In this document: one piece after another, positions 1,790 to 58,235 of the stretch | Numbering within the stretch: the first letter of the stretch is position 1 | Layout: each line of letters opens with the position of its first letter | From: Takakia lepidozioides | Taxonomy: Eukaryota > Plantae > Bryophyta | Direction: 5' to 3' | Assembly (NCBI GenBank): GCA_030704615.1 | Contig: CM060733.1 | Coordinates: forward strand, 69,936,001 to 70,000,000 | Length of the DNA stretch: 64,000 nucleotides | Position numbers and translations under genes: made by a program | Notes under the pieces: generated by a model | What the model was told of the DNA's origin: nothing | The model's database searches: none | Seen by the model: the letters and a program-made list of their open reading frames with translations, nothing else

Positions 1790-2147
1790 CAAGCTATATT
1801 ATAATAGTGCTTAAAAACAGGAACGTCACATCTAGCTTAGCATATCGCTATCACTCTTTAAAATAGAAGTCGAGCCAGGGGCACCCCAAGCTATGGGGAC
1901 TCCACCCCACAACAACCTACACTCCCATCATAAGCACACTCAGATCTAAACGCATGAAGGAGCTCAGTCGCGCAGGCTCAACTCGAGAGAGATGAGCTGC
2001 GCGACTGTCGCTCTCGTGAAGATAAGGCGGTTCAGGTGTCAAACTAAACTTGACACCTGACTTAACACTTGACCTAAATCCAAGTGTTAAATACAAATAA
2101 CTAGCTTTATTCTAGTTGTTTTCACACTGTGCTTATATAACTTGACA
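1790..2147 (-). mobile_element. Hairpin-rich LTR-like fragment related to the putative 3' LTR of the DNMT-Gypsy element
   Basis: 2087-2147 matches 38422-38482 at 59/61 nt. Four consecutive hairpins lie at 1966-2120. The left boundary is uncertain. Confidence 0.5.
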
Positions 2148-22008: not shown

Positions 22009-22203
22009 TATGCATGGGATCTTCAGATCCTACATATATCCCCACCCACAAATACTTACACAAATATCGCGGGCGTAAAAGTGACAATGTAACTCATACA
22101 AAATGTGCAATATCACATGCATGCATAATGATAGTGATGGTCCCTATGACCATGTCTCCCCCTAGGCCACATTAATCTCGTACCGGAGTCGAGATCCACG
22201 TAC

Positions 22204-30161: not shown

Positions 30162-30468
30162 CTGCAAAAACGAACTAACAAGGTCAATGTACAGACACAG
30201 GATAACCTCCACTGCACATTGGAGGTTGTCGGATTTGAAAAAACCCCCGAGACGAGTTTCGGAGAAGGCCTGTATCTCAGAGGATCGGGATGGTATAGGG
30301 TGGAGAAACGCATGGATGAGACTAGGAGATATGAAACAATTCAATGTCAATTCAGATTGAAAAAAAAATCACAGTAGACAACAGTTTTTATAGAAAAACA
30401 ATACAACCTATAGAAAAACCAATCAAAAATATACATTGAATCACAGACGTGATTGATTAATAAAATCT

Positions 30469-31200: not shown

Positions 31201-32244
31201 CTGTGAGAAATTCATACATCCACTTAGGTGGTAATCAAGATAAACCAAGGACAGGATTGACATTGGGAGCAACGTCCACTGGATAGTCGAGGTTCAGGAA
31301 AATATACAGCAGCCATCTATGTTTCAATCTGTTCCAAGGAAGCGTCAGGAAATTTTTGTTTTATAAGATAAATCTGCCACTGCAAATCCCATAGCAAGAG
31401 GCATTTGACCTTTGGGTCATTATACGGTCGACATCCTATGGGTTTTTCCACGTTGAATATATCAGCGTCTTTTTCGGATAAACCGTAACTCTTCCAGATG
31501 CGGTTTGAGTTCATCCAGAAGAAACTTGTCCTTGTATGGGTCGATGAGCGCTTTATATTTTCAAATGCCTCCTCCACTGTATTATGGGGTAACATATCCA
31601 CTTTCTTTTGCAACTCTGGTCTTAGTCCATCTCGGATGTAAACCTCACCAAGGTAACCGATGTCAAGAACCAGGACGTAGTATCTTGGTCGAGATCATTT
31701 CGGTCCCTCAGAGAGGCGATATCAATCCTGTGGGTTCACAGATTTGTGATAGTCGATTGGAGGGTGAATCATATCATCCTGTGGAATAACAGAACAATTA
31801 ATTTATTATGAAAACTAGAAGAAGGAAAAAGAAGAACATAGCTAAGATGGTTATGAAGTGTGTACCCGTTTCGGGGAGGGATTCCGAATTTGCTGTTGTG
31901 GCTGCTCGCTCTTTTTTCCTTCGCGCTGAGCAACGACCATATCCGACTCATCTCCTGTTTGAGTCGCGATGGATTTTGTCCGGGTTTGTGTGATTTCCTC
32001 CAATTTCCGTTCATGAATCTATACGAGTTTTTGTAACGGTCAGTCACATGTAATGTTGAAGAAGGTGGGAAATATCAAGATACAGATTAGATATTGGCAA
32101 AAACACAACCAGAACACAACCAGATGCAATACACACAATTTGTTCCATTTAAAATACTTAAAGACACCATAAATCTCCAGGTGTCATTCGTTACCTACAT
32201 CCAAATTGACATGTTGGGAGACACTTTGAGAGTAAGTTGGGCTC

Positions 32245-35300: not shown

Positions 35301-37692
35301 CATATGTTGTTCAAGCTCAACTTTTGCCCGCATGTGCTTGAATATGTCAGCAACACATGTGCAGAGATTCAACCCAAAAAATAAATAAATAATAAAACAA
35401 TTACCTCCCCAACGACGCACTCGCTCCTCAACCAATTTTGAATTAAATCGAATTTTAATGAATTCTAAATACATAATTGGATTTAGAATGACCATGATTG
35501 CGGTTTTTTGCTACATAATGATTTTGTTTTTGGCTCAATTTTGTTTTGTGAATGCAAACCCCACACTATACATCCATGCAAAAATTCGGACCAATTTTTA
35601 TTTTATTTTATTTTAAGTTTTCTTGGGTCACTATTGCATAACTCTTTATGAAGAGTGTATGAAGTTGAATTCCAAATCAACTTTGAAGTGCAAATGAGGG
35701 CAAAAAATATGGTTTTGGGTGCCGGATGTACCCCTTTGACATTAGATCTTTGAGCTGAGTCTTCAGCTCGACCAACTCTCTGTGGCTCAACCGGTAGGGC
35801 GCCTTGGCAAGCGGTTCCGATCCCGGTATCACCTCAATCTTGTGGTCAACTCTTCTTCGCGGTGGCAAGCCGCTTGGTAAATCCTCCGGCATCACATCCT
35901 GGTATCTCTCCAAAATCCCTTTGATCCAATCTGGGCTCGGCTCCCCATCGCCTTCTCCCTTCACTTCTCTAATGTAAAGCAAAAACTGGGGCTCATGTGC
36001 CTCCTCCACGGCCCACTCCCTTGCTGACAGAAGGTTTATTCGCCCTCCCACGGGTTTGGGCGTTTCCAATACTCGTAAGACTTCGCCACCATCCCCACAT
36101 GGTAGCGTGACTACTCTTTTGCGGCCATTTATGACCGCTCCGGATTTGCTCAAAAAGGTCATCCCCAAAATGAGATCCACTCCATCGATCTCGCAAATGG
36201 TGAAGTTCTCACGTCCTTCCCATTTCCCCAGTTGAAGAGGGACATCGAACGCCAACCTCGTCGCCAATTGCGGTTCTCCTTTGGCAGAACGCACCTCAAT
36301 AGAGGCCCCCACGTCACTTGTCGAGAGTCCCAGCTTTTGTGCCGTTGCCGGTGTCATGAAGGAGTGCGACACTCCTGTGTCCACCAACAATGACACGTTA
36401 GTTCCGGATATTATCCCATCCACGAACAAAAACTGACTCCCTTTACGTAAGGCGCCAGTTTCCTGATACAACTCATAAGAAAATTTGCCTACCTTGCAAG
36501 TCCTGGCGACCACCGCTTCCACCAAGCGACTGATGGTATCTTCCGACAGCTCTGTGGTCGCCCGAGTCATGTTCAATTGCCGGGGCTTCGTGCACTTCTT
36601 GGCCATGTGCCCGGGCTCCCCGCAATTGAAACACACTCCATCAAAGGTCGCCTTCTGTCCGCCATAGGCCGCTCCACCCGCTTTTCTTTTTGAAGCACTG
36701 GGTGCCGCCTTGACTTGTGAAGGCCATCCCTTCGATTTCCACGTGCCATTGTCGCCGCGTGGCCTATCCCACTTCTTTTCCGGTCGGAAGGCGTCACCTT
36801 CCCGCCGGGTCTTCTTGTGGTTCAGCTCCGTACGGCCTAGTCTTTCACCCCTAGGGACATCCGAGAAATATTCAGCCCTCTCAATTGCCTCGTTCAAAGT
36901 CTTAGGTGGCTTCTCCTCCAACTTCCGCCTAGCCCATGGGGCCAGTCCCGCCACAAAGTTGAAGACCATTTCTGGTTCTGCCATGTCCGCGACTTCGAGC
37001 AACAGCACATTGAAAGCCTGGACATATCCCCGAATGTCATCTGTTTGCTTCAAATTCCTCATCTTGTCCCGGGCAAGCCAGGACGCGTTGAGGGGCACAA
37101 ACTGCCTTTTCATCAATTCCTTGAACCCACTCCAATTCAAGGTTTCCGGGCTTGGACCTCGATCGTGAAGGCGTTTCTCTGCCACCATTGTTGAGCATAG
37201 CCCCTCAAATAGGTGGGAGCCACTTCCACCCGGTCCTCGTCACTCAACTTGGCCGCCCGGAAGTACTGCTCTAGCTCCAGGAGCCAGGTGTTGAGTGCCT
37301 TCCGATTTTGGACGCCCTCGAAGGTGCCGGGTTCCTTAGGCTTCACCTTAAATTTTGCCTTAGTGGAAGTGGCATTAGCCGCCTTCAACATGTTTCAACG
37401 TCCCGCCAAATTGCGCCAACAACCCTTCCCAAAAGGCTGCCGGCATGGGAGGCATCTGTTGGTCGGTCGGAGCTCTCACGGATTCCTCGGGCTCCGACTC
37501 CTCAGATTCCTCCTGCTCTTGAGCGGCCTCATTTTCGGAGTCATGCATCGCTTCCTCAAACGGCCGCCTCGGTGACACGTCGCCCCATCGGGCTCACCAG
37601 GATCATCATCTTTGGGCCGTTCCGCTTTTGCTTTGGCTTGCCCGACCCCATGATGAGGCCAATCCCAAGGACGATCACGTACTGAACTCTAA

Positions 37693-37704
37693 GCTTTGAT
37701 ACCA
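37693..37704 (-). promoter_or_regulatory. Primer-binding site for initiator tRNA-Met
   Basis: TGGTATCAAAGC, one mismatch to the canonical TGGTATCAGAGC. Confidence 0.9.
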
Positions 37705-37706
37705 AG

Positions 37707-38420
37707 TGTCGCGCACCTCACTTCGGTAAGCTCCCCTTCAGGTCATAGTTGCTAGCTTGATGCGCGCCTAACTCCCAACCTGGCCGCCGGACCAACTTGG
37801 AGCTTCGGCTGCTCACCGGGGCATAACGGTCCCCCTTTGAACTCCCAAAGAACCCTCCACCGATTTGGAACCAGCGGGAATTCCCTTTGGTAGTTGGCAG
37901 TCCGGAACAGCTCCCCACTCTTTGGTCGCTTTCCGGCTCGCTCGCTTACTCACTAGTTTTTGGTCACCAACGGGCTTGCACCGTTCTCGGGGTTACTACT
38001 CCCTATATATACTTCTGTAGCTGTCCGCGGGGGTTTCACAACCAGCCATGCCATTTTATGGCGAACCACCACGAAAATCCTCGACTCCCGGTGATGAGTC
38101 GCGGTGAGTCTTGGCCCACTCACCACGGCCCCTATGGACCGTGATGAGTCCCAAGACTCCCCACGACTCCCACCACAAGGTCTCCGCCCCCATGGTGAGT
38201 CCTATGCCACCCCCACTAAGTCCCGCTAAGCTACCACCACCCCTTGTGGAGCCACCCCCACCGCACCCGGTGTGCGGGGCTCCCCTAGTGAGCGCCTCCG
38301 CCTCCTTGAGTGCCTTGGACACTCAAGGGTGCTTCAGCCCCCCATACCTATCGCTGCCGCTGCCCCACCACAGGGGCAGCCCCTCATGTGTCCCTGCCCT
38401 CAAGGCAAAGGGCCGCGACA
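37707..38420 (-). repeat. 5' LTR (714 bp) of the chromovirus-like element
   Basis: Termini TGTCGCG...CGCGACA (7-bp inverted repeat), 2 nt from the PBS. Confidence 0.9.
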
Positions 38421-38829
38421 ATTAAATACAAATAACTAGCTTTATTCTAGTTGTTTTCACACTGCGCTTATTTAACTTGACAGCTGTCGTGCGCATACGT
38501 ATCGCTACACAACTACATCGCTGTCCAAACCACACCACACATATATGCACAATAAAGTAGTCTGCCACAATCGCCCCTCTAGCTGGCGGGTAGGTCCCTC
38601 TACCTCCAGATAGCTACAAGATGTAATAGCCACAGCCGTACTAAGTCCTCTATCACTGTCCCTATTGCACTCAAACTCTATAGACCAAGAGGCCGGGTAC
38701 AAGAGTAGCCCCATCGTTAGTCGTTGTCTTGCAATCTGTGAACTTGAGCCAGGACCTCGTGTGTTCAAGGTCTCCTAGTAGTTGGGCCTTGCGTTTCTTG
38801 TTAGCCTTCCATGGTTGTATCCACTCCCA

Positions 38830-38973
38830 CTATCCAATGCAATGTGGACATAACCAATCCCCATCCGGAACCATCTCAAGAGGTGGAGTCAAGCATCCCA
38901 TATGCCAACCTCTAGAGCATGGATCACACACCAGCATGGTGGCTGCCCCTCTAGCAGACCCACACAACATGCA
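38830..38973 (-). other. PHD finger at the polyprotein C-terminus (not in the ORF track)
   Basis: Manual translation gives CMLCGSARGAATMLVCDPCSRGWHMGCLTPPLEMVPDGDWLCPHCIG* (C4HC3 with the conserved Trp), in frame with ORF 39037-39249 across one TGA. Confidence 0.93.
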
Positions 38974-39039
38974 CCTCAAACCTGCAGATACCACTGCCAA
39001 GTTTGGGTCTATCCTGCCATCAACATTCGGAAGGTGTCA

Positions 39040-40200
39040 TGGCGCACAATTACGCACATGGTCCTTCCAAGTTATGCCATCCCGACCCTCCAAGACCAAG
39101 ACGCTTGAGGGCAAGACCTCTCGAACCCTCAAAATAACACGTCCTGCAGTCACATCCAAGGTCGTAGGAGCAGTCTGCTGCAGATAGACGTAGTCACCAG
39201 GGTTGAATCCGAACCCCAGGACGATAGCCCCCACCACGTATGGTAGCATACCTCAATGTATCACGGGTTGTGCAATGGCAAGGTTCTCAAAAGCCATTGG
39301 CATGACTTTCTTGAACAACTCTGCACGTTGCTCACATGCACGTGCCCACACATCCGGACGTCAAGGTTAAGAACTGTAGCAGCTTCTCTGCGAATGGATG
39401 TAGGCAAATCCGGCTCTCGGCCAAAGAAAAGAAAGTATGGTGAGAAGGAGGCAAGTGATGCTTGCTTGAACCTGTAGCCCATGGCTAGCCAGGGTAACTG
39501 AAGGTCCCAATCTCCTAGGTGTCCCTTCTACAAGCCGTACTTGCGCAAACCCCTCTTTACTGTTTGAACAACTCTCTCTGCCAAGCCATCGGCCTTAGGA
39601 TGATCCCGAGAAGTGGTGTGGTGGTCTATCAAGGCCTTGTCACACAAACCTGAAACTCCCCCAAGAACTCTCTCCCTTGGTCCGTGAGTACCTCAGCTGG
39701 AGCACCGAATCGGCTAAGCACACAATCCAAGAATGCATATGCAGCTCCCTCACTAGCCTTATCAGGCAATGGAACCAATTCAATCCACTTGAGAAGTGCT
39801 CCACCATCACCAACACGTACTTGTTGTGGCGCATGGTCAGTGGCAACGGCCCTGCGAAGTCAAGACCACCTGTAGCCCAATCCCATGATCAGAAGAGGGT
39901 GCAATTGTGGAGTAGGGGCATTGAATGAAGCACGCACCCTGTTATACACCATGCACCTAGCCACAAATTGTTGCACCTCTGTGTGCATACCACGCCACCA
40001 ATACTGCCCCTGCAGTAGACTATGAGTGTGTTGCACCCCAAAATGCCCCAACTCCTCATGGGCATGCCGCACTAACCGTGCCCGCTGTGTTGGGTGAGGC
40101 ACAATCCTCACTCGACCATCCTCCCACACTCGGAGCAGGTGTGTCCCCTCCCACTTGAACCTCTTGGCTCGTTGTAGGATCCAATCCCTCTCCTTGGCAG
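39040..40200 (-). pseudogene. Gypsy integrase
   Basis: HAHEELGHFG...YWWRGM...CMV; YVLVMVEHFS; downstream core broken by frameshifts. Confidence 0.9.
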
Positions 40201-40459
40201 TCACAGTGGCTGCAGTGTCTCCAGTGCGGAGTAGTCCAACACAACTGAATCCTCATGTATATCTTTGGCGCCACCTTGCTCATTGCTGGCCTCAGGGTCC
40301 TCAGACACTTGATCTATAGTCATCCCTGTTGCATGTCCAACCTGGCCTTCCGCTTCCAAGATACACAGAAATGCAGATGCATGCCATCCGGGCACCATCT
40401 CCTCGTCCGTCTCACCATGCCACCGAGCTCCAGTGTCATCCTGCTGGCTCGTGCATGGA

Positions 40460-41800
40460 TTGCGACTCAACCCATCTGCATTGCGATTGACCAAACCCGG
40501 TCGATGCACCACCTGAAAGTCATACTCTTGAAGGATGAGTGCCCACCGTGCAAGCTTCCCCGTAAGCTTGTCTGACTCCATCAACCACTTGAGTGGTTGG
40601 TGATCCGTGACAAGGATGAAGAGATTGTCGTATAGATAGCACCTGAAGTGTGCCACAGCCCACATTGCAGCTAAGCATTCTCCCTCATATGAGCTATACT
40701 TAGACTCAGCAGCATTGTTCGAGCGGCTAGCGTAAGCCACTACGAACTCTCTTCCTCATCATCCACCTGTGTGAGCACCGCTCCAAGCCCCAGCATGCTC
40801 CAAATCTGTATGCAGCTGAAAAGGACGCCCCCTAATAGGTCGTCTCAAGATGGGCGCCGAGGTCAACCTTGCCTTGAGCTCTTGAAAAGCTTGTTCTTGC
40901 TCATCTTCCCACTGCCACTCCTGGTCCACCTTGGTAAGCTTGGTTAGAGCCTTTGCAATGGCACTAAATCCCTTAACAAACCGTCTGTAATAGTTTGCTA
41001 ACCCCATGAAAGCTCGAACTCGGCTCACATCCGTGGGGCGTGGAACCTGTGCAATGGACTCTACCTTAGTCTGCTGTACCCCCAATCCTCCAGGATATAT
41101 CATGTGACCCAGATACTCAATCTGGTTGTGGAAAAACTTGCACTTTCCCGGATGTAACTTCAATCCGTGCGTCCTCAAGCGCTCAAATACCCCCTGAAGG
41201 TGTCTCTCATGCTCCTCCACCGTAGCACTAAAGATAATGATGTCATCTATGTAGCACCGAGCAAACTCCACCCCTGCTAGAATCTTGTCCATGACCCTTT
41301 GAAACTCAGCAGGAGCGTTTTTAAGCCCAAATGGTAAGAACCGCCACTGGTATAGGCAATCCTTCCCGTGCTCATTGATCCCCCAGAATGCCGTCTTTTG
41401 CTTATCCGCCTTCTTGATCGGCAACTGGTGATATCCGGATCGTAAATCCAACGTGCTAAAGACCTTGGAATGCCCAATGGCATCAAAGATCTCCTCTGGT
41501 GTCAGCATGGCATACCTATCGGACTTGGTCTGACGATTTACAGGCCGGTAATCACCGCACATACGTCTCTCCGTCCAATTGCCATAGACATCCTTCTTGG
41601 CTGGCATCACTGTGGCTGAAGCATACTCTCCACCAGAGAGCTCCACCAAACCTGCCTCCCAAAGATCTTGAGTTCTCATCTGAATCAAGGACCTCTCCAT
41701 GTCACTGTATCTATAGGGTCTTCGAAAGATTGGCGTGTCAGTAGCCAATTCAATGCGAATCTCTTGACCCTTCAGTGCCTCCAAGTCCTTCAAACTGAAG
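40460..41800 (-). CDS. Gypsy reverse transcriptase and RNase H
   Basis: ORFs 40759-41976 and 40201-40740, with YIDD and two compensating frameshifts near 40750-40805. Confidence 0.95.
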
Positions 41801-42269
41801 GCAAAGCAATTCCTGTAAGCCCTCAGGAACCGCCGCATACATCGTCTCTCTCCTCCGGTGACAATGGGTCCAATGTCAGGCTCCCAATTGTCCTCCGTAA
41901 CTGCAATCTTAAGTCCAGTGGGCTTTAGAGGTAGAGAACGCGTCCCGTGGTTGCTATGCTGCAACCTCTTGAGCAATACTCCCTTCCTGCTCAGTCAATG
42001 ACAAGGCCTCATCCTGCCCCATCATCTCATCATTGAGAACCTCCTCAACTCGAGAAGAATCCCCAACCTCATCCATCACAGCTGCCTTGGCTGCCAACTC
42101 CCTCTGGACCTCGAGCACCTCCCACGTGTGCCATGGATGTCTACACCCCGTGGTCCTCACCAGCTCGCCCCCACTCGCTGCCTGTACCATCTCGGTAGGC
42201 AGAGAGACCGTCAAGGGAAGTGCACTCCGTACTCTACGTTGCTCAGCCATAGCCAAGCTGATAATCCAG

Positions 42270-43205
42270 GTCAAGCAATTGAGATCCATTGCTTGCCCCA
42301 ACACCTGACGACGTGATGCCTCAGAAAGAGAAGGCACCGCCGTGGTCCCAGTGGAAAACCCCATAGCCCGCTCTCGCTCGTTGGCATTAGGCTCCACTAA
42401 CTGTTGCAACTGAGCATCCCACAGGAGGCCATGTCCACCATCCCGAAAAGCATGGGATCCTGGGAAGCTGAGCAGTGTAGGTCATGTTGCTCGTGGTTGA
42501 CCCACCCTGTTGACCACTGCCAAAGGCGAATGGTCATCGTATCTCACACGTTGAGACTGCCTCCCTGTGTCCAAAATGCTGTCCACTATGAGGTGTGTTG
42601 GCCGCTGCACCCCATCAAATGCACGCTTGAGCAGTGCGGGTGGCATCAAGTTAGTCCACCATAGCCGTGGACGATGAGCCCGTGATCCCACTGCAGCTGC
42701 ATCCAGCAGCACTGCTGACCCAAGCCACAACCGGACTTGATGCACACTGGCCATCACCCTGGCCCGAGAATCGCCTATCAGTGGCACATTCTCCAAGATG
42801 TATGCTGACGATACAGCTTGATGAAGCTGCAAGTGGCGCAAAATCCACACCATCTCCCAAAACAGACCTGTCCTCGAGTCTCGCAATCCATTGCCATGCC
42901 CGGCTGATGAATGCCCTTGGCAGGGCCAACCTGCCACTACCAGATCAATGGAGCCAACCTGCTCCAAATCCGGTGCCCCCAGCAACGAAATGTCTGCTGG
43001 CAAGGCTTGTTGGTATCCACGAACTGCAGACACTGGCAACAAAGCAGGGTACTGTTGTACCAACTGAGCAACATGGCGCAGTGAGATGCGTCATGCAGTC
43101 TCATCCCTCTCCACATATAGGTAACGCCTTACCCGCACACGTGCCTGTAGCACAGCAGCCAATCCGGTGCTGATCCCGCCAAACAAGTCCAGAAGGCAAA
43201 TGCCT
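42270..43205 (-). pseudogene. DNMT3-like C5 cytosine methyltransferase domain within the retrotransposon polyprotein
   Basis: Motif I LDLFGGISTG (~43175-43192), II YVE, IV GWPCQG (~42913-42931), VI ENV (~42785-42793), VIII RPRLWWTNL, IX ERERAMGF and X RRQVLGQAM. All lie in one frame, with stops at 43091 and 42482. Confidence 0.93.
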
Positions 43206-45811
43206 TCATCCGGATACTGCCACACAATAGGTGTGGTATCCAATGGTGACAACTGAGGTGGTCCTGGTGCAATACCCGCACTCTCCTCCTCTCCTGACGG
43301 TACAAAAGCCTCTACCCAGGCTTGTTGCACCCGTCGATCAGCAACCTGCTGCAAATCCTTGCTCGTACCCCACAATGGAGTGTGAGCAACCATGGCAGGC
43401 AACTCCGCCATACCATGCATGTCATCCTGCTCTGCTGGAGGTGGCACATCCTCTGCATGGGCATTGCCTTCCAGCAACTCTCCAGGCCAACTAACTGCAG
43501 CTGTAAAGGCGGCTAGTGTTGGCATCTTGCCCCGTTGGGCAGCCGCAATACCCCCAATGAATGTCACAGGGAGCTGTGCACGACGACCATCCCCTGACTA
43601 CCATCCAGGCCTGTAGAATGCTGACTCCTCCCAAAAGTCCAGGGTGAAGCCCATGGGGTATAACAGTGCCCCACCAACGAGGACATCGTAAGAGACCGCG
43701 TCTGTCACAATGGCCTTGGCTCGCATTACTGAGCCATCAATAGGATGATCCGGCTGCAGTCTAATGGCCAACTGATGCCGTGTCATGCCCCGAGCCTGCT
43801 CTGATCCTCCCAGAGATGTCTGTATCTGGAAAGGACAAGGCTCCATATCCGCCTCCATGAGACCCAAACCTGCAATAGCAGCTCTGCCCAACATCAGTGG
43901 CTGAGCTCCCGAGTCCAACAAGACCTGCAGTGGCCGGTACTTCTTGCCTGCCGGTCCACTCAAAGAGAAAATGTCATCCTGGTTGTCTAACAAGACAACT
44001 CCAGGTGTCACCATGGCGCGCTCAAAGGCTGGCCTAGCTGGCAGCTCCGTCAACTTGGCAGCTGCAACTTGCCATGGCACAGCCGTGGCAGTCTTGACCC
44101 TCAAATCCGAGGATCCCTCTGCCGCTACACCTTCCAGTAACTCCGCAGAAGATGAAGTGACCTCCCCACTCTCACAGAGTGTTGCTGCTAGTCTGAACAC
44201 TGCAGCTGGTCTTACCCCCGACGTCGCAATCATGGTTGTTGAGAACAGTGGGGCTTGACACACAGAGGTGGCTGCCCCCAACAACACACCGGCTGCACTA
44301 GCCTTGGCAGCAGGTGTCAGTGCTGCACGTGTAGCTCTCCCCAATGGCATAGAAACCTCCGCCTCGGTAACAGTCGGGCGAGAACTAGGTGCCATGGATG
44401 GCGTTGACACTGTCTCCGCCAAAGTGAATGACTGAGGCAGCCTCGCCTGACGGCTTGCCTCCCCACGTTGTGGATCCAACTCCACCTCTGCACCTCGTGG
44501 CTTAGGAACTCGTGCTGCTCCTCGAGTCACGGCTGCAGCAGACTCCACCTGCACTAGTGGTAGTGCTACTCCGCACATGAATCCCATGCCTCCCATATCT
44601 CCTCCCTTAGGCGCAGGAGGTGGACCATCTCGCCTGGGAGCTGGTACCGCCTGAGCTGTAGCCATGGCAGCGAGCCTCTGCTCTAGCTGCTGAAGCCGGT
44701 TGGCCATGCCTTGGTCAATACCCTGACCTCCGAGTCCTTGGCCATGTTGAGCTTGCCCTTGGCCTGCACCTCGTGCCCGGCCACCTCGTCCTCTCTGGGC
44801 TGGTCCACCTCGCCCCCGGCCACCATTGTTCCCTTGGAACTGGCCTGGGTGCAACTCAGGATGCAAGTCATAACAATGGGCATCTCCATGCCCATACTTG
44901 CCACAATGCCCACACTCCAACAGTGTAGGCTGTGCTTGTGCCGGCCTTTTGCCACTCTCTGGGCAATCTCTCTTGACATGGGGTCCTCCACATGTCCAAC
45001 ATATCACCCCTGGTTGCTGTTGGCCTGCAAAAGATGCCACGGGCCTCTTCACCTGAGGTCCCCTGTAAGCTCCATGGAACTTGGGTTGGGAAACCTTGCC
45101 CCCCTGACCACGCTGTTGGGCAGTCCCTTGTGCCTGTGGGCTGGCAGCTGCGCCTCGTGTAGGCATGTCCTTGCCAAACCCAATGGTAACAACTCACTCC
45201 TCCACCATGTTGAGCTCAATCCGCTCAGCCAGCAGAAACACATCTGCTAATGTGGGTTGGGCTGCTTGTAACAGGGTTGCATACCGCACTCTTCTCCTGA
45301 GCTCCTTGTCCAAAATTCCATTCCAGAACTGGATTGCCTGAGCTTCAGTAACCCCTTGGGTCACACTTATCAAGCGCCTCATACGAGTGTAGGCCTCTCG
45401 CCAGCTCTCACTGGGTTTGCGCTGGAAGTCTTTCAAACTTTGCAGCTTCTCTGTCCGTACACCTTGGTAGTTCCTCCGCAATTCCTGGAAGAACTCCACC
45501 ACCGGGTTGAATCTAGGCACATGTGTTGTAGTCGTGGCAGGAGGAGTAGTAGCACCTTTTGAACTGGTACCACCTGCAGAAGTACCGGCACTACTTGTTC
45601 CACTACTAGTACTGGCAGTGGGAGATATTGGTACTGATGCAGCTACTAGTTGCGTCGTGCCTCGAGTAATGGAGACGTAGTCAGGTGACCAATACATCCT
45701 CCACTCCTCAATCTCTGCTTCATGTCCTTGCCTAAACTCGTGGTAATCGTCCATAGGCGGGCCTTCCAAATGCTGGAACAGTCCCTTCCACGCCATGAAT
45801 GGGGTGAATAG

Positions 45812-48722
45812 CCAGAGACTTTTGATGGGGATATCCTATTCGAGCTGCCTCCTCCTCCACGAGTTGGAGGTATAACAAGCATGATGCACGGAATGGACAA
45901 GAAACACGACGGGCACCCATGGTGTAGAACAAAAACATCCAATATTCAAAATGAGGACAAGCTTGTTTTCAGGAGAACAGTTTGCAATGGACACCTTAGG
46001 TGTGATAATTTGAATTGCAGACACTTTCTTCAGTCTGGGGTTCCACAATCAAAGCGAGTGGGAGGGTCTCGCGGAAAATCCATTTAAGCTTGGGACTGCT
46101 CCTCCAGCGGAAACCACTTTTGTTTGCAAATTCTGCAAACTAGTACCAACCTGTCTGGCACTGTGTGGAGCAAGAATGTACTATGTTGTCCACTGTTTGA
46201 AAACCATGACAAGAGCTTGTGTGCATTTCGGTTTCCATAACCATCCTGTCTCGAAGGGGGATTACAGGGAGAGTGTTGAGACAATATCGAGGTTGATTAA
46301 ACAGGAGTACAAGAGAAACCCATTCGCAACAACATCCGCAATTGTTCTTGGCGCAAGCAAGTCCTTCTTGGAAAGCCATATTTTGAGAGAAGGGGATTCT
46401 GTGGGGACTAAACTTGACGGTGCAGCACTCGACGTTGTCAGGATCATTTCTCCATGTTGAGTTCACCTAACATTCGTCATCAGATCAATGCATTGAGAAT
46501 GGGCTCTGGGATCAGAGGCTACATAGACAACATTTTGGAAATGAAACGACTAAACATGTACGACTACATCCAGGACAATGTTTTTCCAGGTCAAGGTGCC
46601 ATCAAAGTTTTTCTTTTCAAAATGTCGACTGCTGGGGAGGGTAGTGGGGTTAGCCTCGTGAAGCGGATGCAGAAGACTGATGACCTGCAGAATTGTTTTC
46701 TTATGTTTGATCATGTGAAACAAGTGAAAGATTGGACGACAATGGCTTGTCATGTGTACGATCCAGTGTACCAACGAGTTATGACAATTACAGTTTGTGA
46801 CATGCAATCCGAGGATACGGAATCCCAGAAGCTCATGTGGAATTCCCTTGTACGTGTTATGGGCTGCCATCTCCAAATTTCGCTGGTTTTATGGCAGATA
46901 GTGCTCAGGCGAATTTCAATGCAGTTCGAATTGTCTTTGGATCAAGCGACCCAAAAGTGCCAATGTCGGGAAGAGAGCGTACATGTCTATTCCATTGGAC
47001 ACAATCTTTGGAGAAACATACAAAATCGGACATCAAACCAGAGATGCAGACACAGCATCATAAATTGTGCAAAGAGTCAAAGATGCTAGAACAATGAAGG
47101 AGGCGGACACTTTGTTCTAGACAATTCGTGCTTGGTGGTTCTCTTCTAGAGCTGCATCGCTTGAGAGTATGAGAGCATTGGAAGATTGGCTGGCGTTTTG
47201 GCACTTCCGGTACAGACAGTGGGGAGCAGCCATGACAATGGTGCGAGGCTTGTATTGCTAGCTTTATTCATACATTTACTTTCCAAATTTTGCTCTCCTT
47301 GCTTTCTTTATGTTGTTCCCTGTGCACTGTTCTGAAGTGTGGTTCTGCTCTTTGCAGAACATGTCCATCGAGGAAATGGCGGACATGCCATCTTGCAATT
47401 TGGCAGAGACTGTGCACAATGCATGGTTGCAACAGTCTGGGAAACGAGGTCGGGATTTGTATGTGGCAACAACAGATGATCTGATACGTGCCTTGCAACA
47501 ACAAACCAAATACAGTGATTTCTTGCGAGGAGGGGCTGGTGGCAAGGGTCCGGACAAACAGGAGTTGATGTTGCGTGCTGCAAACAGATCCGGGGATCCA
47601 AGCAAGATAGCACGGGCAGTGAGCATGTATGCCCAAGGAACGCCACTTGTTTCTAGAGTTCCACATCTTGAAGGGGAGGAGAGATTCGGCTCATGTAAGA
47701 GGAAATTGAACACCCCACCTGGTTCGGATTCCGATTCGCACAGGGCAGACCGTGATAACTTCTCGAAGCCTCGTGTTCCCCTGCATGGCAGATCCATGTC
47801 CGGAACCTCCATTCTGGAGGAACCTCCAACTCGACGGCAGGCTCCAGCATCTAACAATGCCACTGAAATGGTGCAGGAGAGAAACTACCCCCTTGATGTG
47901 CTGGAGTCCGCATGCCCCGACCACGTTTGGCACATAGAACGCACAAGTGCAGGGTCTCGTGTGAAATGTACAGCGATCAGGGCAACTAATTTCGAGAAGT
48001 GCACTTCATCTATATCCAGAGACGGTGCTCGGACTCCTGCTCCGACTTTCACGGGTTTGATGCGAACATACGACCAACCAGAAGCAAAGAACCACAAGTT
48101 CTGGTTCTGCGCAGACGATTGTGGTAGATGTGTGCATGGAACTGTGCGTCCTTCCGTGGTGATGAAGCCAGCTCCTCCAACCGTTTGGCCCGTCAAGGTG
48201 GGAACACATCTCTCAAGTCAGGAGATTGCAATGCTGGAGGAGGCAGGCTTTTCCCTTGCGAGACAACCCCTACTGCATACATGTGTTTCTACTTCTGCGT
48301 CCTCTCGGGTCCCCCCGGCAAATCCTCACTTGTGGCCAACCAAACGAGATGGAAAGTTGGCTCGGCGTTTCCCTCCAACCGCTGAACACTTCGGGAAAGT
48401 GGAGTCCGCAAGAATGCTCCAAGCTCGTGTTGCAAGCACCACGGAAGTGCCCAATCCAGGATATGGTCGGGTGTACACAATGATCACTTCGACATCTGTT
48501 GTTCATGACACGGCATACGACATCACGGTTTCCAATTTTCTCAATTGCACATGTCCTGATTTTGTGAATATGCTATCAACCAGTTTGGGCAAGAGAGGTA
48601 AATTCATACCCTGCAAACATTTGTATTTCGTATTTTTGAAGAGGATGGTTTGCGATCCCAAACGTGACAACTTCGTTCACCAGGCCACTCTGAGTTTCAA
48701 CGAGGTCGATACTCTATTGTAG
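45812..48722 (+). mobile_element. Mutator-like (MULE) transposase pseudogene with GCM-like N-terminus and C-terminal SWIM finger
   Basis: DGHPW...CNGHLRC...C and HFGFHNHP (GCM/WRKY-like); FLMFDH, FMADSAQANFNAVRIVFG...CLFHW, NLAETVHNAW (DDE); CTCPDF...CKHLYFV (SWIM). Intron near 47241-47358 and frameshifts. Confidence 0.8.
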
Positions 48723-48992
48723 CGGGGTACAACACATAGGTAGCATCAACTATGCCATGTGGTATATGGACGATCATGCTATGAAATGTGCAATTTGCAA
48801 CATTGTCATGGAAATTCAATTCAAATCAATTCGTTTGCAACATCGTCGGCGGTGCAATGATATGGCGTCCCTTATCCCTCCATTATCCTTCCAACTATAC
48901 TGAGTGAGCTTTGAGTGGCAACTTTTAAAAGCACCGGAAATGAACTCAACATTTAGTCCATGGATGGAAAGTGGTTCGCAAGAAGGAAACCT

Positions 48993-51900
48993 TCAGGTAT
49001 CTGGCTGAAGGTTAGCCACCTCCAAATTCGCGTGCGCCTTCACTGCTTCCACCGCTGTAATTCTCTTGGTGCTATTTCTTGTTTTTCGTGGCGGCATTGT
49101 CCACACGACATTGTTCACGTGGATCCATTGAGCAGGATCTGACGGGTTGTACTCCCATACTTTTGACCAACAGTCCCTGTACCTCTCAAAGTCTGAGGGG
49201 TTACCTCCTTTCTTCGGTCTCCACCACTCCACCTTCACTTTCTTAAAATTAGGATCTTCCCTTTCTCGGATGACATCTGAAATTGCCATTCCCATCCAGA
49301 CCGGGCACGTCGTTGGGTTATGAGGGCGAACGAGCACAAAAAACCCTTTCTCAATATCCTTGAACGGATTCAAGGGTATCCTTGGACGCTCGCACCTAGG
49401 GCCACAGTAAGTTTCGGGAACCTCATCCTCATCTTCCATATCTTCCAGTATCTGTGGTTGGATGCCATCCCTCCGATGGTTTGAGGACCAATTTGTTTTT
49501 GGCCAAAATCCCTCAAGAAGCTGAATACGATCCGGAATGTCCTGCATTGGCTTATCAAGTTCGACGAGAATATTTCCCCAGTATTGGTCATATTGTTCCA
49601 TTACACCCCGGTAATGATCGTCAAGCAACATTCCTTTGGTCCAAAAATCTCTGTATTTCTTAATACCATTTTTTATGAATGACTGTTTTTCTGAGGAGTT
49701 GTCCCCGACTCCCCATATCGGTTTTCTTGGAACGGCATCTGGGTCTCCTTCAGGGAGATTTGGAGTCCCATCAGGGTTGGACTTCCACATCTTAACGTTG
49801 GAGTTTGTAGGAAGCCACTCCGAATCAATAGCTGACTTCTTGTACTTCATAACGGGCCAGCCATCCGCATCCTTAAAAAACCAAAAGACGTGCATCTCTG
49901 AGATCCCAACCAAAGCCTCCTTTCCATCATGAATACAACCCTTAACAAACTTCTTGAGTCGGGAACCTCCTGAATGATTTGAGGAATGAATTGCATATCT
50001 TGGGAGATCATGAATGACCTCATCAAATCCGGAAGAATGTAGGTGCTGCGTTCCTTTAGCTTCTTCGAGAGATAGCTAAAGAATCCGTCAATATCCTCAT
50101 GGGTGTGCCCGACCATGAGAAAACCAAGCTGGATCTCTTCAAAGACATCTTTGGCAGTGAGGAGGGATAGAAAAACAAGCATCCATCTGTTTTTATTGTC
50201 CTTGGAGGAGTTGTCCATTTGCAAATAAAGTCGTCTAGGAAGTGGTCGAACACCACGTTTATCGTGCGGCCTGCAGGGTTTCAGAGCCTCCAAACATCTC
50301 GATTTACCTCTCATGAGCGTTTCAAAAAAATCATTTTGAACTTCAGTGTCGAAAATGTTCCTAGATTCCCGGCATGTTGGCTTTTCCAGTTGGCGCAGGC
50401 ACCGAGCCAGCGACCCTATTGTGAAGTTTGAATTGCCTTTTCCAGAACTCAAGGGAAAATTGAGCGTAAGCTCCATCACTGTGTCCGTGCGTAACCATTC
50501 CTGTCAATGAGACCGGCAACTGACCCAATCCCGAGACCATCTTGTTCGTCGCCTGTAGCCTCGGAATAGCCGTTTTCCTATGATCCATCTTATCGTGAAT
50601 AATACACAGGAACTCCTCCGGAATCATAACGGACTCATTCCTCCAGTTATGGTACAGCCTTCTACATGAATCTTGATGCCTCAAGTGCAAATCAAGCGCC
50701 CGCTTATGTGCGACATGATCGGAACTCCTCTTAATTGACTTCTTGATCAAGTTATTCAACATCTCGCATTCTGTGCACTTAGCAAAGGTGCTTCCTGTTT
50801 TTCAAACGTCCACGTTAGGAAATATTCGATTCCGTATACGGCTTATAGCTGGCTACGAGACTCCTTTCAAACTGAGCAGTCTGTTCGTCTGCACCCCAAC
50901 TCCCCAATAATGTCAACATCCACTAGGCAGTGGAGGTTCTACAAAGTGGAAGAACAAGAAAGCATGATGGCATCAAAAAGAATAAAATCAGCCACAGTAT
51001 TTTGAAAAAGGAAAAGAGGACAACGAATAAAAGTCACCTCGTTGGACTCCTCTCGAATTCTCTTCCAGTTCATTTCGGGTGGCAAAATTCTCAAAGTATC
51101 CCGACGTCCCTCTCCAATGCAACGTGTTTTGTGAGGCATAAGGTCAGTATTGGCATTGATAATGGATATGATGTTCCCCTCTGCCTGGAGTGTCCTTGGT
51201 CGAGGTCGCTTGACGCCACGATTTCCGTGGAAAGATGACAAACAGCCCTCTTTACTGAGCTTTTTGTACTCCATGTACGTTGACCTTCCAATTCCGTGTA
51301 TTATCCACCGTGCTTTCTTACAAACATCAACACCTTCTATCGTAACATACGACCTGCGTGATGACCCATCCATAATGTGAAGTCGTTTTGAAACATTCAA
51401 TCCAAGTTCTCTCCTCTCATCGAATGACGAACCCCAAAATGCAGTACGAATTGCCAAGGTTTTTCTCCAATCAAAATACTGGCAGCACTAAAGCTTGCAG
51501 CAAGGTTTGCTGCTCACCGACCTCACTTCATCCAAAGTAAGATTTTTCTTGCACTTTTTTGAGTCCTCCATATTGGATGGTTTCTTCTTCATAGTAAAAT
51601 GCCTGTATGCTGCTTTCTTTACGCATGTACCATGGTCGTCATTCTCCATGTCACTGCATGATCGTAGGAAATTTTCGAGATCAACAGAGAGTATCCGGCC
51701 ATTTTCAAGAAGTCTTGTTTTTGTTAACGACCATTTCACAATCGACATCAGTGAACCGGATTCTACAGAGATTGTTCTGGTGACCAGAACCCCAATATCG
51801 TCCTCTCCGAGTTTGTCATTCAGAATGATCTCGTTAGGAATGCATGCCTGAATTCGGCCTTCGAACAGGGCGTTTCCGTCCTCCCCAAGAAGAAGACACT

Positions 51901-55089: not shown

Positions 55090-55460
55090 AAGGTCCATGG
55101 TGACATTGTCAAATTTAGGGTATCCAGAAACAGATGTGGTAGTATTGAGGATACAAAGGGAGTGTTTGAGAATATGGCTGAACGAACCTAGAGTGTGATG
55201 ATCGCAGGATATGCCCCAGCATGGATGCGGGATGGAGGCATTGGAGACCTATGAACAAATGATGTGGGGAGGGTAAAGGCAAACCTGGTCATGTTCGTGT
55301 GTAGATGCAATGCGTGTGCGAGCCTGACAACCCTGGAAAAGGGCAAAGAGGTCCATGCTGACATCATTAGAGCTGGAATTGTACAAGATGTCATTCCGAA
55401 CGATACCCTGGTAGACATGTATGCCAAATGTGGCAGCATCGAAGCTGCAAAGAGAAGGCA
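55090..55460 (+). pseudogene. PLS-class PPR fragment
   Basis: NACASLTTLEKGKEVHADIIRAG...DTLVDMYAKCGSIEAA. Confidence 0.85.
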
Positions 55461-55899
55461 AATACTACTTCCATTGAGCGTTTTCATCTGTCTTCCTAGT
55501 GCAGAAGCTTGGGTGCAACACAGTACAACACAATCCCTGTTTTATGAACGAACGTTGATCACGTGGATTTAATGATGGCAGGATTCTTCTTCGACATGTT
55601 TCAGCCTGGTTTGCCTTCCCATCAGACTCGGCCCTGGATTGCTCGGCAGAGCAGAGCTGGCATGAGGGTTTTACAAATCCTTCACGATGATGGGACAACC
55701 ACGATCGCAAGGTGTGGCTTTTTCTTAATGTACGATGTGAAGAAGTTTGTCCATCCTGCAAATGTGGGCTCTTGGCTCTTGGCTCTTGGCAGGAAAGTAG
55801 GTGCACACTCACATTGTCCAAAGTGGATTCACGCCGAACGTTTTTCTACTCAACACCCTTGTCAATATGTATGTTAAGGGGAGCATCATGGATGATCGC

Positions 55900-58235
55900 C
55901 AAGTGTTCAACACATAATGCCTCAACGATCTTTGATCACGTGGAATATAATGTTGGCAGGATTTACCAAGCATGGGCATTATACGAATGCCTTTGAGACC
56001 TATGAGCAAATGATGCGCGAAGGGGTGAGCCAACCACATCACGTTTGTTTGTGTTTGCAATGCGTGTGCAAGCCTGGAAAAGGGGAAACAGGTCCATGGT
56101 GACATCGGTCAAAGCTGGAATTGCACCAGATGTCATTCTGAACACTGCCCTGACCTGGACATGTATGCCAAATGTGGATGCATTGAGGATGCAAAGGGAG
56201 TTTTCGACACTATGGCTGAACAAGATGTGGTGTCGTGGAGTGCGATGCTTGTAGGGTATGCACAGCAAGGACATGGGATGGAGGCTTTGGAGACCTATGA
56301 GCAAATGATGGGGGAAGGGGTGAAGCCTAGCCACATCATGTTTGTGTGCATTAGCAATGCTTGTGCAAGCCTGGCAGCCCTGGAGAAGGGCAAAGAGGTG
56401 CATGGCGATATCATCAAAGCTGGAATTGTACCAAATGTCAATCTGAACCATACCCTGGCAGCTCTGGAAAAGAGGAAAGAGGTCCATGGTGAAATCTTCA
56501 GAGCTGGAATTGTACCAAATGTCATTCTGAACCATACCCTGGCAGCTCTGGAAAAGGGGAAAGAGGTCCATGGTGACATCTTCAGAGCTGGAATTGTACC
56601 AAATGTCATTCTGAACCATACCCTGGTGGACATGTATGCAAAGTGGGTGCATCGAGCCCTGGACAAGGGCAAAGAGGTGCATGGCGATATCATCAAAGCT
56701 GGAATTGTACCAAATGTCATTCTGAACACTGCCCTGGCAGCTCTGGAAAAGGGGAAAGAGGTCCATGGTGACATCTTCAGAGCTGGAATTGTATCAAATG
56801 TCATTCTGAACCATACCCTGGTGGACATGTATGCAAAGTGGGTGCATCGAGCCCTGGACAAGGGCAAAGAGGTGCATGGCAATATCATCAAAGCTGGAAT
56901 TGTACCAAATGTCATTCTGAACACTGCCCTGGTAGCTCTGGAAAAGGGGAAAGAGGTCCATGGTGACATCTTCAGAGCTGGAATTGTACCAAATGTCATT
57001 TTGAACCATACCCTGGTGGACATGTATGCAAAGTGGGTGCATCGAGCCCTGGACAAGGGCAAAGAGGTGCATGGCGATATCATCAAATCTGGAATTGTAC
57101 CAAATGTCATTCTGAACCATACCCTGGCAGCTCTGGAAAAGGGGAAAGAGGTCCATGGTGACATCTTCAGAGCTGGAATTGTACCAAATGTCGTTCTGAA
57201 CCGTACCCTGGTGGACATGTATGCAAAGTGGGTGCATCAAGCCCTGGACAAGGGCAAAGAGGTGCATGGCGATATCATCAAAGCTGGAATTGTACCAAAT
57301 GTCATTCTGAACACTGCCCTGGCAGCTCTAGAAAAGGGGAAAGAGGTCCATGGTGACATCTTCAGAGCTGGAATTGTACCAAATGTCATTTTGAACCATA
57401 CCCTGGTGGACATGTATGCAAAGTGGGTGCATCGAGCCCTGGACAAGGGCAAAGAGGTGCATGGCGATATCAACAAAGCTAGAATTGTACCAAATGTCAT
57501 TCTGAACATTGCCTTGGCAGCTCTGGAAAAGAGGAAAGAGGTCCATGGTGATAGCTTCAGAGCTGGAATTGTACCAAATGTCATTCTGAACCATACCCTG
57601 GTGGACATGTATGCAAAGTGGGTGCATCAAGCCCTGGACAAGGGCAAAGAGGTGCATGGCGATATCATCAAAGCTAGAATTGTACCAAATGTCATTCTGA
57701 ACACTGCCCTGGCAGCTCTGGAAAAGGGGAAAGAGGTCCATGGTGACATCTTCAGAGCTGGAATTGTACCAAATGTCATTTTGAACCATACCCTGGTGGA
57801 CATGTATGCAAAGTGGGTGCATCGAGCCCTAGACAAGGGCAAAGAGGTGCATGGCGATATCATCAAAGCTGGAATTGTACCAAATGTCATTCTGAACACT
57901 GCCCTGGCAGCTCTGGAAAAGAGGAAAGAGGTCCATGGCGACATCTTCAGAGCTGGAATTGTATCAAATGTCATTCTGAACAATACCCTAGTGGACATGT
58001 ATGCAAAATGTGGGTGCATCGAGGATGCAAAGGGAGTGTTCAACACTATGGCTGAACGAGATGTGGTGTCGTGGAGTGCGTGCTTGCAGGGTATGCACAG
58101 CAGGGACGTGGGATGGAGGCTTTGGAGACCTATGAGCAAATGATGGGGGTAGGGGTGAAGCCCGGGAAAAGGGCAAAGAGGTGCATGGGGATATCATAAA
58201 AGCTGGAATTGTACCAGAGTCATTCTGAACACAAC
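55900..58235 (+). pseudogene. PLS-class PPR gene remnant containing a 660-aa ORF with internal tandem amplification
   Basis: MYAKCGCIEDAKGVFDTMAEQDVVSWSAMLVGYAQQGHGMEAL (S and P motifs). Frameshifts on both sides; no E/DYW domain seen. Confidence 0.9.
56370..58010 (+). repeat. 195-bp higher-order tandem repeat (84 + 111 bp subunits)
   Basis: AAGTGGGTGCATC recurs at 56641, 56836, 57031, 57226, 57421, 57616 and 57811. There are 17 KEVHG subunits in the ORF. Confidence 0.97.

Follow-up and report, generated by a model that had tools for sequence, protein, structure and literature searches.

A Ty3/Gypsy-type retrotransposon family with a DNMT3-type methyltransferase in its Gag-protease reading frame, seen from a decayed copy in Takakia lepidozioides

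A retrotransposon in the genome of Takakia lepidozioides (Bryophyta) that encodes its own DNA cytosine methyltransferase (DNMT) raises the question of whether the enzyme is a regular part of the element and, if so, what the element gains from it. The locus was analysed in a window of 64,000 nucleotides (positions 69,936,001 to 70,000,000 of contig CM060733.1, assembly GCA_030704615.1). In the favored reading, to which we give a probability of about 0.58, the element belongs to a family with the order Gag-protease-DNMT3, stop, reverse transcriptase (RT)-RNase H-integrase-PHD finger, and the DNMT is likely packaged and likely methylates the element's own cDNA. The window element itself is a decayed Ty3/Gypsy-type copy of a multi-copy family, dead and shortened at both ends.

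All features of the element lie on the minus strand. Translation agrees with the earlier note on this DNA in placing gag, protease and DNMT in a single frame (45796-41954), and contains the four premature stops that it named (45194, 43598, 43091 and 42482, codons 201, 733, 902 and 1105); the copy is dead, as that note held, with lost ends and a frameshifted pol. The gag with zinc knuckles (44850..45811), which contains one premature stop, gives a weak Retrotrans_gag match below the Pfam cut-off (E 0.0026); its 5' end is lost, so that an end-to-end alignment of the ORF1 region with the Marchantia protein P0004 (54% over residues 44-1243) starts at residue 44 of the latter, leaving the window gag without the first ~43 codons. 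The aspartic protease (43601..44038, LLDSG motif at 43921-43904) was identified from sequence, with no Pfam match in the window copy and Asp_protease_2 matches at the equivalent position in relatives. The pol domains matched by Pfam after the DNMT are the RT (41071..41886, RVT_1 E 2.4e-32, YIDD at 41253-41242), a frameshifted RNase H (40450..40900, RT_RNaseH E 4.8e-26 and RT_RNaseH_2), an integrase with several frameshifts (39040..40180, zinc domain, DDE core and C-terminal part, Integrase_H2C2 E 1.1e-15), whose core is split over three frames, and a PHD finger at the integrase C-terminus (38833..38985, PF00628 E 1.7e-11). Hence the Gypsy order protease-RT-RNase H-integrase is present; the original domain reading was right on gag, protease, DNMT and RT and overlooked the PHD finger. 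A DIRS/Ngaro identity was rejected on the Integrase_H2C2 match here and the rve matches in relatives, and no tyrosine recombinase match was found in the scanned ORFs of the window and the relatives.

The DNMT domain (42230..43213), interrupted by two premature stops, carries its motifs in canonical order, and the DLFGG, YVERD, GWPCQ, ENV, RPRLWWTNL, ERERAMGF and RRQVLG motifs quoted previously are found in the translation. The HMM search proposed at that time yields a PF00145 match on the stop-free piece 42482-43090 (E 1.1e-11, 45.1 bits compared with a Pfam cut-off of 22). The top PDB sequence matches of a single-sequence query are DNMT3A/B (E 2e-8), and a family profile reaches E 2e-28 for DNMT3A/B, 1e-15 for DRM and 5e-11 for HhaI. 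The structure model (pLDDT 95.4) resembles DNMT3A (Foldseek E 1e-19) and DNMT3B (Z 28.4, rmsd 2.6, 273 aligned). Judged by similarity and predicted fold, the domain is an unpermuted, intronless relative of DNMT3 that keeps the key residues. An identity with host DRM was rejected because the motifs run from I to X, unpermuted; the DRM2 alignment is confined to model residues 1-133. The catalytic Cys, reported earlier as retained, is present in 49 of the 49 loci that cover the domain, as is the motif I Phe, with a mean column identity of 59%; with decayed copies included, the ENV Glu is kept in 44/51 and the motif VIII Arg residues in 42/57 and 46/57. The DNMT is under purifying selection, with dN/dS between subfamilies of 0.12 (L022/L025) and 0.18-0.20 (L002/L004, L002/L006 and L006/L022). 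For the window DNMT against L002, L004 and L006, dS is saturated and pN is about 0.2, and the values of 0.39-0.94 for pairs inside the decayed main subfamily reflect dead copies and are no evidence of selection.

ORF1 (Gag-PR-DNMT) closes with the DNMT, and a conserved stop stands between it and pol. This fifth stop, the TAG at 41956-41954, is followed by CAACCA and is conserved across the family, so that it does not represent decay; the natural ORF1 end TAG CAA CCA (41948..41956) fits the plant readthrough consensus UAG-CAR-YYA (PMC3542737). Between DNMT and pol, the window copy and 34 of 41 related loci have a stop followed by CARYY. The exact CARYYA, with a chance of about 0.0014 per stop, is found in the window and six of these loci (L002, L022, L025, L040, L041 and L047), the signal closing in C or T after CARYY, not in A, in 28 of the 34. 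The linker of L036 has no stop, and in the distant P0039 and P0191 a single ORF runs through. The proposal that the DNMT is a module of the polyprotein is supported by the relatives and by co-divergence with the RT; its companion, that the RT follows directly, needs amending for the intervening stop and for the different frame of the window RT (in 33 of 41 relatives the two share a frame). Occasional readthrough of UAG-CAR-YY(A) would yield pol, leaving far more DNMT than RT and integrase, so that the stop offers a prediction of enzyme abundance.

The ends of the element depart from what the original label, an ordinary LTR retrotransposon, implies: no LTR pair was found within the window, and the relatives have split repeats, ending in A and B. 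At the split-repeat end, the window copy breaks off 62 bp into A, after B and the junction. A polypurine-tract-like run (38571..38580), which aligns in L006, L014, L044, L056 and L022, stands ahead of terminal repeat B (38485..38570, ending CGCACGACA); next come the B|A junction GACA-GC-TGTCA (38476..38493), a proposed internal integrase attachment site, and the start of the 3' copy of repeat A (38421..38482), cut by a second Gypsy element whose LTR starts at 38420, where a contig also stops. The pattern CGACA..T.TCA is invariant in all seven aligned B|A junctions, and the palindrome is kept from the window through the distant L022 and L048. An isolated repeat A of the same family (1856..2147) is recognizable by sequence match (97% over 61 bp between the 3' repeat A and 2087-2147) and by summed contig depth, which is 0.5-0.85 million over 1856-2142, <25,000 leftward and <7,000 beyond 2184.

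Because the window copy has no 5' end, only the relatives show the priming signal and the complete arrangement of repeats. These relatives are arranged as A-internal-B or A-internal-B-A-B: L016 is A...B with the target-site duplication TACA, L044 is A...B-A-B with CATA, the same 3' end recurs in L014 and L056, and L027 has a 4-bp duplication with one mismatch. No B lies upstream of the A start in any of the eight loci having one, and the second A is followed by B in the three of three loci that reach its end. TG...CA ends, target-site duplications and a polypurine tract are present in relatives, the last as a similar run in the window too. No TGG follows A in the relatives; there is self-complementarity instead. 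Perfect self-priming complements of 17 nt (L029), 16 nt (L022) and 12 nt (L048), unrelated in sequence, each begin 26 nt past a TATA-like box, compared with shuffle maxima of 8-10; among 12 loci, the complement clearly exceeds the shuffle maximum in three, is marginal in three (10-11 nt, with the best match of L003 and L044 using another site) and is lacking in six.

The split ends, 4-bp duplications, junction and priming signal point to integration of a circular cDNA. Transcription would start about 26 nt past the TATA-like box in repeat A, and reverse transcription would be primed by the transcript's first 12-17 nt, which would anneal immediately downstream of A; the cDNA would carry B-NN-A as the true LTR and then circularise. 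Integrase would open the internal palindrome GACA-NN-TGTC, producing the TG...CA ends and the 4-bp target duplication, with one-LTR circles giving A-internal-B and two-LTR circles giving A-internal-B-A-B. The integrase of HIV-1 is able to cut a palindromic two-LTR junction (PMC1905944). Recombination between B copies could equally be the source of A-internal-B, and the mirror form A-B-A-internal-B, which is expected from two-LTR circles, appears in none of eight five-prime ends, which speaks against them. The same absence favors a scheme without circles, in which a DIRS/Ngaro-like use of the internal B-A rebuilds linear cDNA for ordinary integration and A-internal-B copies are later B-by-B deletions, and the 2018 description of the Klebsormidium layout as DIRS-like (PMC5890265) is in line with it. 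This scheme nevertheless appears rather unlikely: it does not explain the conserved junction palindrome or the TTTTCA|GTTGTGG join of A end and B start, which, with a polypurine tract ahead of B and a priming site behind A, reads as a join of linear cDNA ends. Circular-cDNA integration, in its broadest form, would mean that an ancient chlorophyte-to-bryophyte clade abandoned linear-end integration, primes itself, integrates a circle via the LTR palindrome and packages a DNMT3 at Gag stoichiometry for the methylation of this circle, a combination that we put forward tentatively. If true, the circle route would revive the circle-precursor idea abandoned for retroviruses and would parallel the DIRS elements, which likewise join split repeats with methyltransferases. 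The terminal anatomy offers a concrete replication route for a repeat layout for which no explanation was met in the 2018 text (PMC5890265), and programs that search for LTR pairs miss such elements.

As to the use of the enzyme, the particle likely contains about as much DNMT as Gag, and the enzyme likely methylates the new cDNA, so that a copy would arrive already methylated, probably at CG, and resemble host DNA or be pre-silenced. DNMT3s of Symbiodinium retrotransposons methylate CG de novo in yeast, and the Klebsormidium enzyme showed no activity there, a result that its authors deem inconclusive (PMC5890265). The observed/expected CpG ratio is 0.47 in the window copy and 0.82 in the neighboring Gypsy element, and the 7-kb segments of the window span 0.38-0.85, with 0.22 in a PPR array, so that the copy bears no specific signature of self-methylation. 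The PHD finger probably steers integration via H3 tails unmethylated at K4. It is of the type without the H3K4me3 cage tryptophan, with Gly or Ala at this position in all 37 parsed relatives (12 of the 49 were unparsed), and its PDB neighbors are CHD4, KDM5 PHD1 and PHF21A. A chromovirus identity was rejected on the presence of this PHD finger in place of a chromodomain, and in a quick tree all nine chromodomain-bearing RT matches fall across an SH-aLRT 97 branch from the window.

Alternatively, the DNMT might act after integration, on the insertion and its flanks or on other copies, dampening the family or seeding heterochromatin, an option listed by de Mendoza et al. (PMC5890265). Expression at the Gag level would supply free enzyme too, the PHD finger resembles readers of unmethylated H3K4, whose logic the ADD domain of DNMT3 also follows, and 179 of 345 listed differences are T/A here against C/G elsewhere (73 are opposite), an excess that argues for methylation of copies after insertion but could equally be due to host enzymes, and the compared stretch took in about 1 kb of neighboring elements. 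Given also that the PHD finger resides on ORF2 with the integrase and not on the DNMT protein, this alternative is considered unlikely. Still less probable is retention of the DNMT for a task that involves no catalysis or no DNA, for example to bind nucleic acids in the particle or to methylate RNA: fold similarity does not prove function and KnitGypsy-Dnmt3 of Klebsormidium was inactive on yeast DNA (PMC5890265), but the catalytic Cys, ENV Glu and motif VIII Arg are retained even in decayed copies and the nearest folds are DNA enzymes.

Homologs of the element (59 longer and 186 of similar length) are named from Marchantia polymorpha, M. paleacea, Calypogeia fissa, Riccia sorocarpa, Sphagnum spp. 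and Closterium, with chlorophyte relatives in Hariotina and Scenedesmus. The common layout is found in 59 metagenome loci, many of them near-duplicates, so that these counts overstate independence. For the window's own species, 97,647 matching contig records imply many copies, with similar summed depth over DNMT and RT, and one contig of 5,009 nt from a second organism spans 38565-43512. Across 31 elements, DNMT and RT distances co-vary (Spearman 0.53, reached in 0 of 2000 permutations), the same clades recur in the two trees, and a Coleochaete pol falls in the RT clade of the window. The shared position across relatives, conservation and co-divergence with the RT uphold the earlier view of the DNMT as a native, DNMT3-like module of the element, and show it to be multi-copy. 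The notion that the DNMT is one host fragment captured once, or an insertion nested in the window copy alone, for which no supporting evidence was found, is refuted by an identical position and frame across dozens of loci and in named proteins from several plant classes, by co-divergence with the RT and by the lack of introns and of the DRM permutation.

The co-varying distances and the purifying selection on the DNMT suggest one old green-plant clade, and a distribution so wide, with co-divergence, favors a single old acquisition over one specific to Klebsormidium. Land plants hold one branch of a clade to which algal elements also belong, so that the occurrence there is less surprising than the earlier note implied; the precedents that it named in dinoflagellates and Klebsormidium are correct (PMC5890265), and no land-plant report of a retrotransposon-borne DNMT was found in the literature searched. 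Beyond one alga, retrotransposon-encoded DNMT3 is now seen in liverworts and mosses as well, and the inclusion of the model Marchantia polymorpha, with its existing genomes and methylation mutants, makes the question left open in 2018, the enzyme's use to the element, testable. In bryophyte annotations, gene models derived from such elements swell the apparent number of DNMTs.

The closest known element is KnitGypsy-Dnmt3 of Klebsormidium nitens, described in 2018 (PMC5890265), which shares the Gypsy domain set, an unpermuted intronless DNMT3-type domain under purifying selection and DIRS-like split repeats, here seen in relatives; its A-coding-B-A-B arrangement is fully matched by L044. That element was interpreted as having been acquired independently within the K. 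nitens lineage, whereas the present clade spans bryophytes, Closterium and chlorophytes; its DNMT lies in the ORF of the RT, whereas here it closes the Gag-PR ORF before a readthrough-type stop; and the word PHD is absent from the text of that paper, in which no replication model for the split repeats was met either (PMC5890265). Three K. nitens RTs (P0235, P0266 and P0319) fall on the window side of the SH-aLRT 97 branch of the quick tree; their records are without a DNMT and unlinked to the KnitGypsy-Dnmt3 copies of the 2018 paper. SymbioDIRS-Dnmt3 (a DNMT3 with A-B-A-B repeats and CG methylation in yeast) and SymbioLINE-Dnmt of Symbiodinium are likewise retroelements with a cytosine DNMT, but use tyrosine recombinase or LINE machinery, in contrast to the DDE integrase and 4-bp target duplications here (PMC5890265). 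EpiLTRs and DAM-LTRs, the latter stated to be absent from Streptophyta, also pair a methyltransferase with a histone reader in LTR elements, in their case DAM and a DNMT4-related DNMT with a chromodomain instead of a DNMT3-type enzyme with a PHD finger (bioRxiv 10.64898/2026.05.21.726589). In the main text of REXdb, PHD, methyltransferase and Marchantia were not found (PMC6317226). Tf1/Sushi and the plant Tcn1 chromoviruses resemble the present family in predicted self-priming without a tRNA primer and in a chromatin reader on the integrase but, unlike it, have a chromodomain and ordinary LTRs (PMC6317226).

The DNMT-bearing Gypsy element on the minus strand of the window (about 38421-45811) is a real feature. 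Translation bears out the reading of the earlier note that gag, a protease and a C5-methyltransferase occupy a single minus-strand frame from 45796 to 41954 with four premature stops, and shows zinc knuckles between gag and the protease; the methyltransferase matches the PF00145 profile above the cut-off (E = 1.1e-11), and Pfam matches downstream of it comprise RVT_1, RNase H, Integrase_H2C2 and a PHD finger. The enzyme had been described as DNMT3-like, and its closest solved relatives are indeed DNMT3A and DNMT3B, by sequence as well as by fold: the model (pLDDT 95.4; Foldseek E = 1e-19) compares with the solved folds at Z-scores of 28.4 for DNMT3B, 24.9 for M.MpeI and 22.5 for HhaI. The label denotes similarity of sequence and of modelled fold, host DNMT3 being absent from the 60 rows chosen for the DNMT tree. 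The copy is dead, as had been supposed: gag is 5'-incomplete, beginning at residue 44 of the Marchantia relative, pol carries several frameshifts, and the 3' end is cut at 38420 by the LTR of a second Gypsy. Neither the lost 5' portion of gag nor the 5' internal region turns up elsewhere in the window, and no copy of repeat B was found next to the isolated copy of its partner, terminal repeat A, at 1856-2147.

One-off capture of a host fragment, the alternative raised at the outset, is dismissed because the DNMT is present in many relatives and is native to a multi-copy family. The protein search with the DNMT detects 59 longer relatives and 186 of similar length, the named ones coming from Marchantia polymorpha (many gene models), M. 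paleacea, Calypogeia, Riccia, Sphagnum and Closterium, and also from Hariotina and Scenedesmus, with Calypogeia (73%) and Marchantia (71%) the nearest; a 50%-cluster search gives 384 representatives at E-values up to 1e-10. Together with a PPR array in the window, these nearest relatives would suggest a bryophyte as the probable host. The same layout recurs in 59 metagenome loci, several of them near-duplicates, the depth over the DNMT in contigs of the window's own species is about equal to that over the RT, and a second organism contains a related copy of about 5 kb. No relatives were found in the viral contigs searched, nor was the element found in any RNA record, an outcome that has no bearing on expression. 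The catalytic cysteine is kept in all 49 loci that cover it, and the dN/dS of the DNMT is 0.12-0.20 between subfamilies, unless dS is saturated, and 0.39-0.94 inside the decayed main subfamily. One relative, P0085, is annotated as belonging to a bacterial MAG (Candidatus Obscuribacterales), yet nests with the distant locus L022 in the element clade, so that the bacterial label probably reflects binning contamination.

The quick RT tree, built from 137 rows with at least 200 aligned RT residues and with SH-aLRT as its only measure of support, places the window element in a 23-row clade (support 99) that also contains Marchantia, Calypogeia and a Coleochaete transcript. The last of these, an ORF from the Coleochaete scutata transcriptome (P0211), runs uninterrupted through RT, RNase H, integrase and PHD, with 65% identity to the window RT region. 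A branch supported at 97, near which there are long branches and which comes from a tree without REXdb references, places every row that has a DNMT or a PHD on one side and 39 other Gypsy rows on the other; the DNMT/PHD side includes three RTs of Klebsormidium nitens as well as Closterium and chlorophyte rows. The same groups appear in the DNMT tree, and DNMT and RT distances are correlated (Spearman 0.53 across 31 elements, a value reached by none of 2000 permutations). In chlorophyte-type members, the DNMT is placed between RNase H and integrase, and because many members with this domain order group together in a clade of their own, in the RT tree and in the DNMT tree alike, the domain appears to have changed position once within the lineage. 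The simplest reading would be one old acquisition of the DNMT, repositioned later. The second Calypogeia RT, P0241, falls in a subclade different from that of the first, P0208, which suggests that liverworts hold more than one lineage of the element.

Among the chlorophyte-type members P0041-P0055, P0205, P0278 (Volvox), P0339 (Scenedesmus) and the metagenome locus L048, many have their homologue of the DNMT inside one long ORF, with RNase H before it and integrase after. At the C-terminus of P0047, the stretch after the PHD has no Pfam match and contains DPWAGTG and SPWF motifs, which we take to be adenine-methyltransferase-like; judging by these motifs, some members could carry a second methyltransferase.

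In the best-preserved loci, a single stop separates two ORFs that share a frame, Gag-PR-DNMT and RT-RNase H-integrase-PHD. Of the 41 loci that contain a DNMT as well as an RT, one frame is kept in 33, and a stop followed by CARYY is present in 34 and absent from seven; the exact CARYYA is found in six of the 41, as well as in the window. UAG-CAR-YYA is the readthrough consensus of tobamovirus, as given in PMC3542737. From the conserved stop and its CARYY context, we infer that the DNMT would be produced along with Gag, and that leaky readthrough of the stop would yield pol. The generality of readthrough is called into question by the last signal position, which is C or T in 28 of the 34 CARYY loci, and by the distant members, in which the ORF is continuous and has no stop.

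The integrated ends are always the start of A and the end of B, none of the eight loci with an A start has a B ahead of it, and the 3' A meets B in the way in which the two linear ends would be joined. The order A-coding-B-A-B is flanked by a 4-bp duplication in L044 and A-coding-B by a 4-bp duplication in L016, the duplication in L027 having one mismatch; A directly follows B in L006, L014, L044 and L056, and unrelated DNA follows B in L009, L016, L020 and L039, as it does in L021, L027 and L036, which have internal deletions. All seven aligned copies share the B|A junction sequence CGACA-NN-T.TCA, among them the one in the window (38493-38476) and those of the distant L022 and L048; a purine run precedes B. 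The sequence right after A complements a stretch starting 26 nt past a TATA-like box, over 17, 16 and 12 nt in three subfamilies whose sequences are unrelated (shuffle maxima, 8-10), and this self-complementarity does not rise above background in six of the 12 loci tested and is marginal in three. The contig of L048, 12.3 kb long, has ends overlapping by 20 bases, an open frame across them and a single junction, and is either a collapsed repeat or a circle.

Were priming to start after A, with a PPT ahead of B, standard reverse transcription would yield cDNA with B-NN-A at both ends, which would circularise and be cut by integrase at the internal palindrome; such a route would explain both observed forms, A-coding-B and A-coding-B-A-B. 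Cleavage of a palindromic circle junction by HIV-1 integrase is on record (PMC1905944). The mirror form, A-B-A-coding-B, is seen in none of eight cases, which counts against circle integration, and A-coding-B could also be produced by B-by-B recombination. Integration as a circle is proposed tentatively, with a probability of roughly 0.4. As for the DNMT itself, methylation of the element's own cDNA would be its most likely role, given the conservation of its residues and, by analogy, the CG activity of the Symbiodinium retrotransposon DNMT3s; the Klebsormidium DNMT gave no signal in yeast (both in PMC5890265). CpG depletion in the window copy is not specific as a signature of self-methylation. 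The PHD finger is closest to those of CHD4, KDM5 (PHD1), PHF21A and UHRF1, which read unmethylated H3K4, and the cage tryptophan is missing from it in all 37 parsed relatives.

KnitGypsy-Dnmt3 of Klebsormidium nitens already unites Gypsy domains, a DNMT3 and DIRS-like repeats, and is presented as an acquisition in the K. nitens lineage (PMC5890265). The window subfamily works alike but does not have DNMT and RT in the same ORF, and is thus a variant rather than a member of KnitGypsy-Dnmt3, probably a relative. Identification of the window element as DIRS, chromovirus or EpiLTR was in each case rejected. The supplementary files searched for PMC5890265 (2018) yielded no Marchantia or Sphagnum entry. 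For the land-plant case, the only other relevant sources found were a 2025 MBE paper and a preprint (bioRxiv 10.64898/2026.05.21.726589), which say 'streptophytes', citing the 2018 work; the supplementary trees of all three could contain bryophyte sequences. Passages of PMC8616336, PMC11982613 and PMC6453930 had no bearing on the question. The literature searched, with supplementary trees, subscription journals and Repbase outside its range, contained no land-plant description of such elements and did not report readthrough, self-priming or circle integration in this group. For split repeats in an integrase-bearing Gypsy, the papers found concern tyrosine-recombinase or Penelope elements or are general reviews, and none was found that links CARYYA to a retrotransposon.

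The second Gypsy (35677-38420, minus strand), an ordinary one, is inserted in repeat A and has gag and protease but breaks off where RT begins; its LTR (38420-37707, minus strand) ends in TGTCGCG/CGCGACA, and its primer site, TGGTATC, presumably corresponds to tRNA-Met. The same LTR end is joined to the DNMT element at five other positions (39866, 40386, 42133, 42658 and 45238) in contigs of run X1, so this Gypsy hit the DNMT family repeatedly. Elsewhere in the window, two NIF-phosphatase-like ORFs and transposase-like fragments (DUF4218, DUF659, DUF7869, SWIM) lie at 28307-31293 (minus strand), 21208-22847 and 46000-50500. A PPR gene remnant (55100-58200, plus strand) has been amplified internally as a tandem series in which 84- and 111-bp units alternate, and the DMYAKCG motif of this array is one that we take to be of the PLS type.
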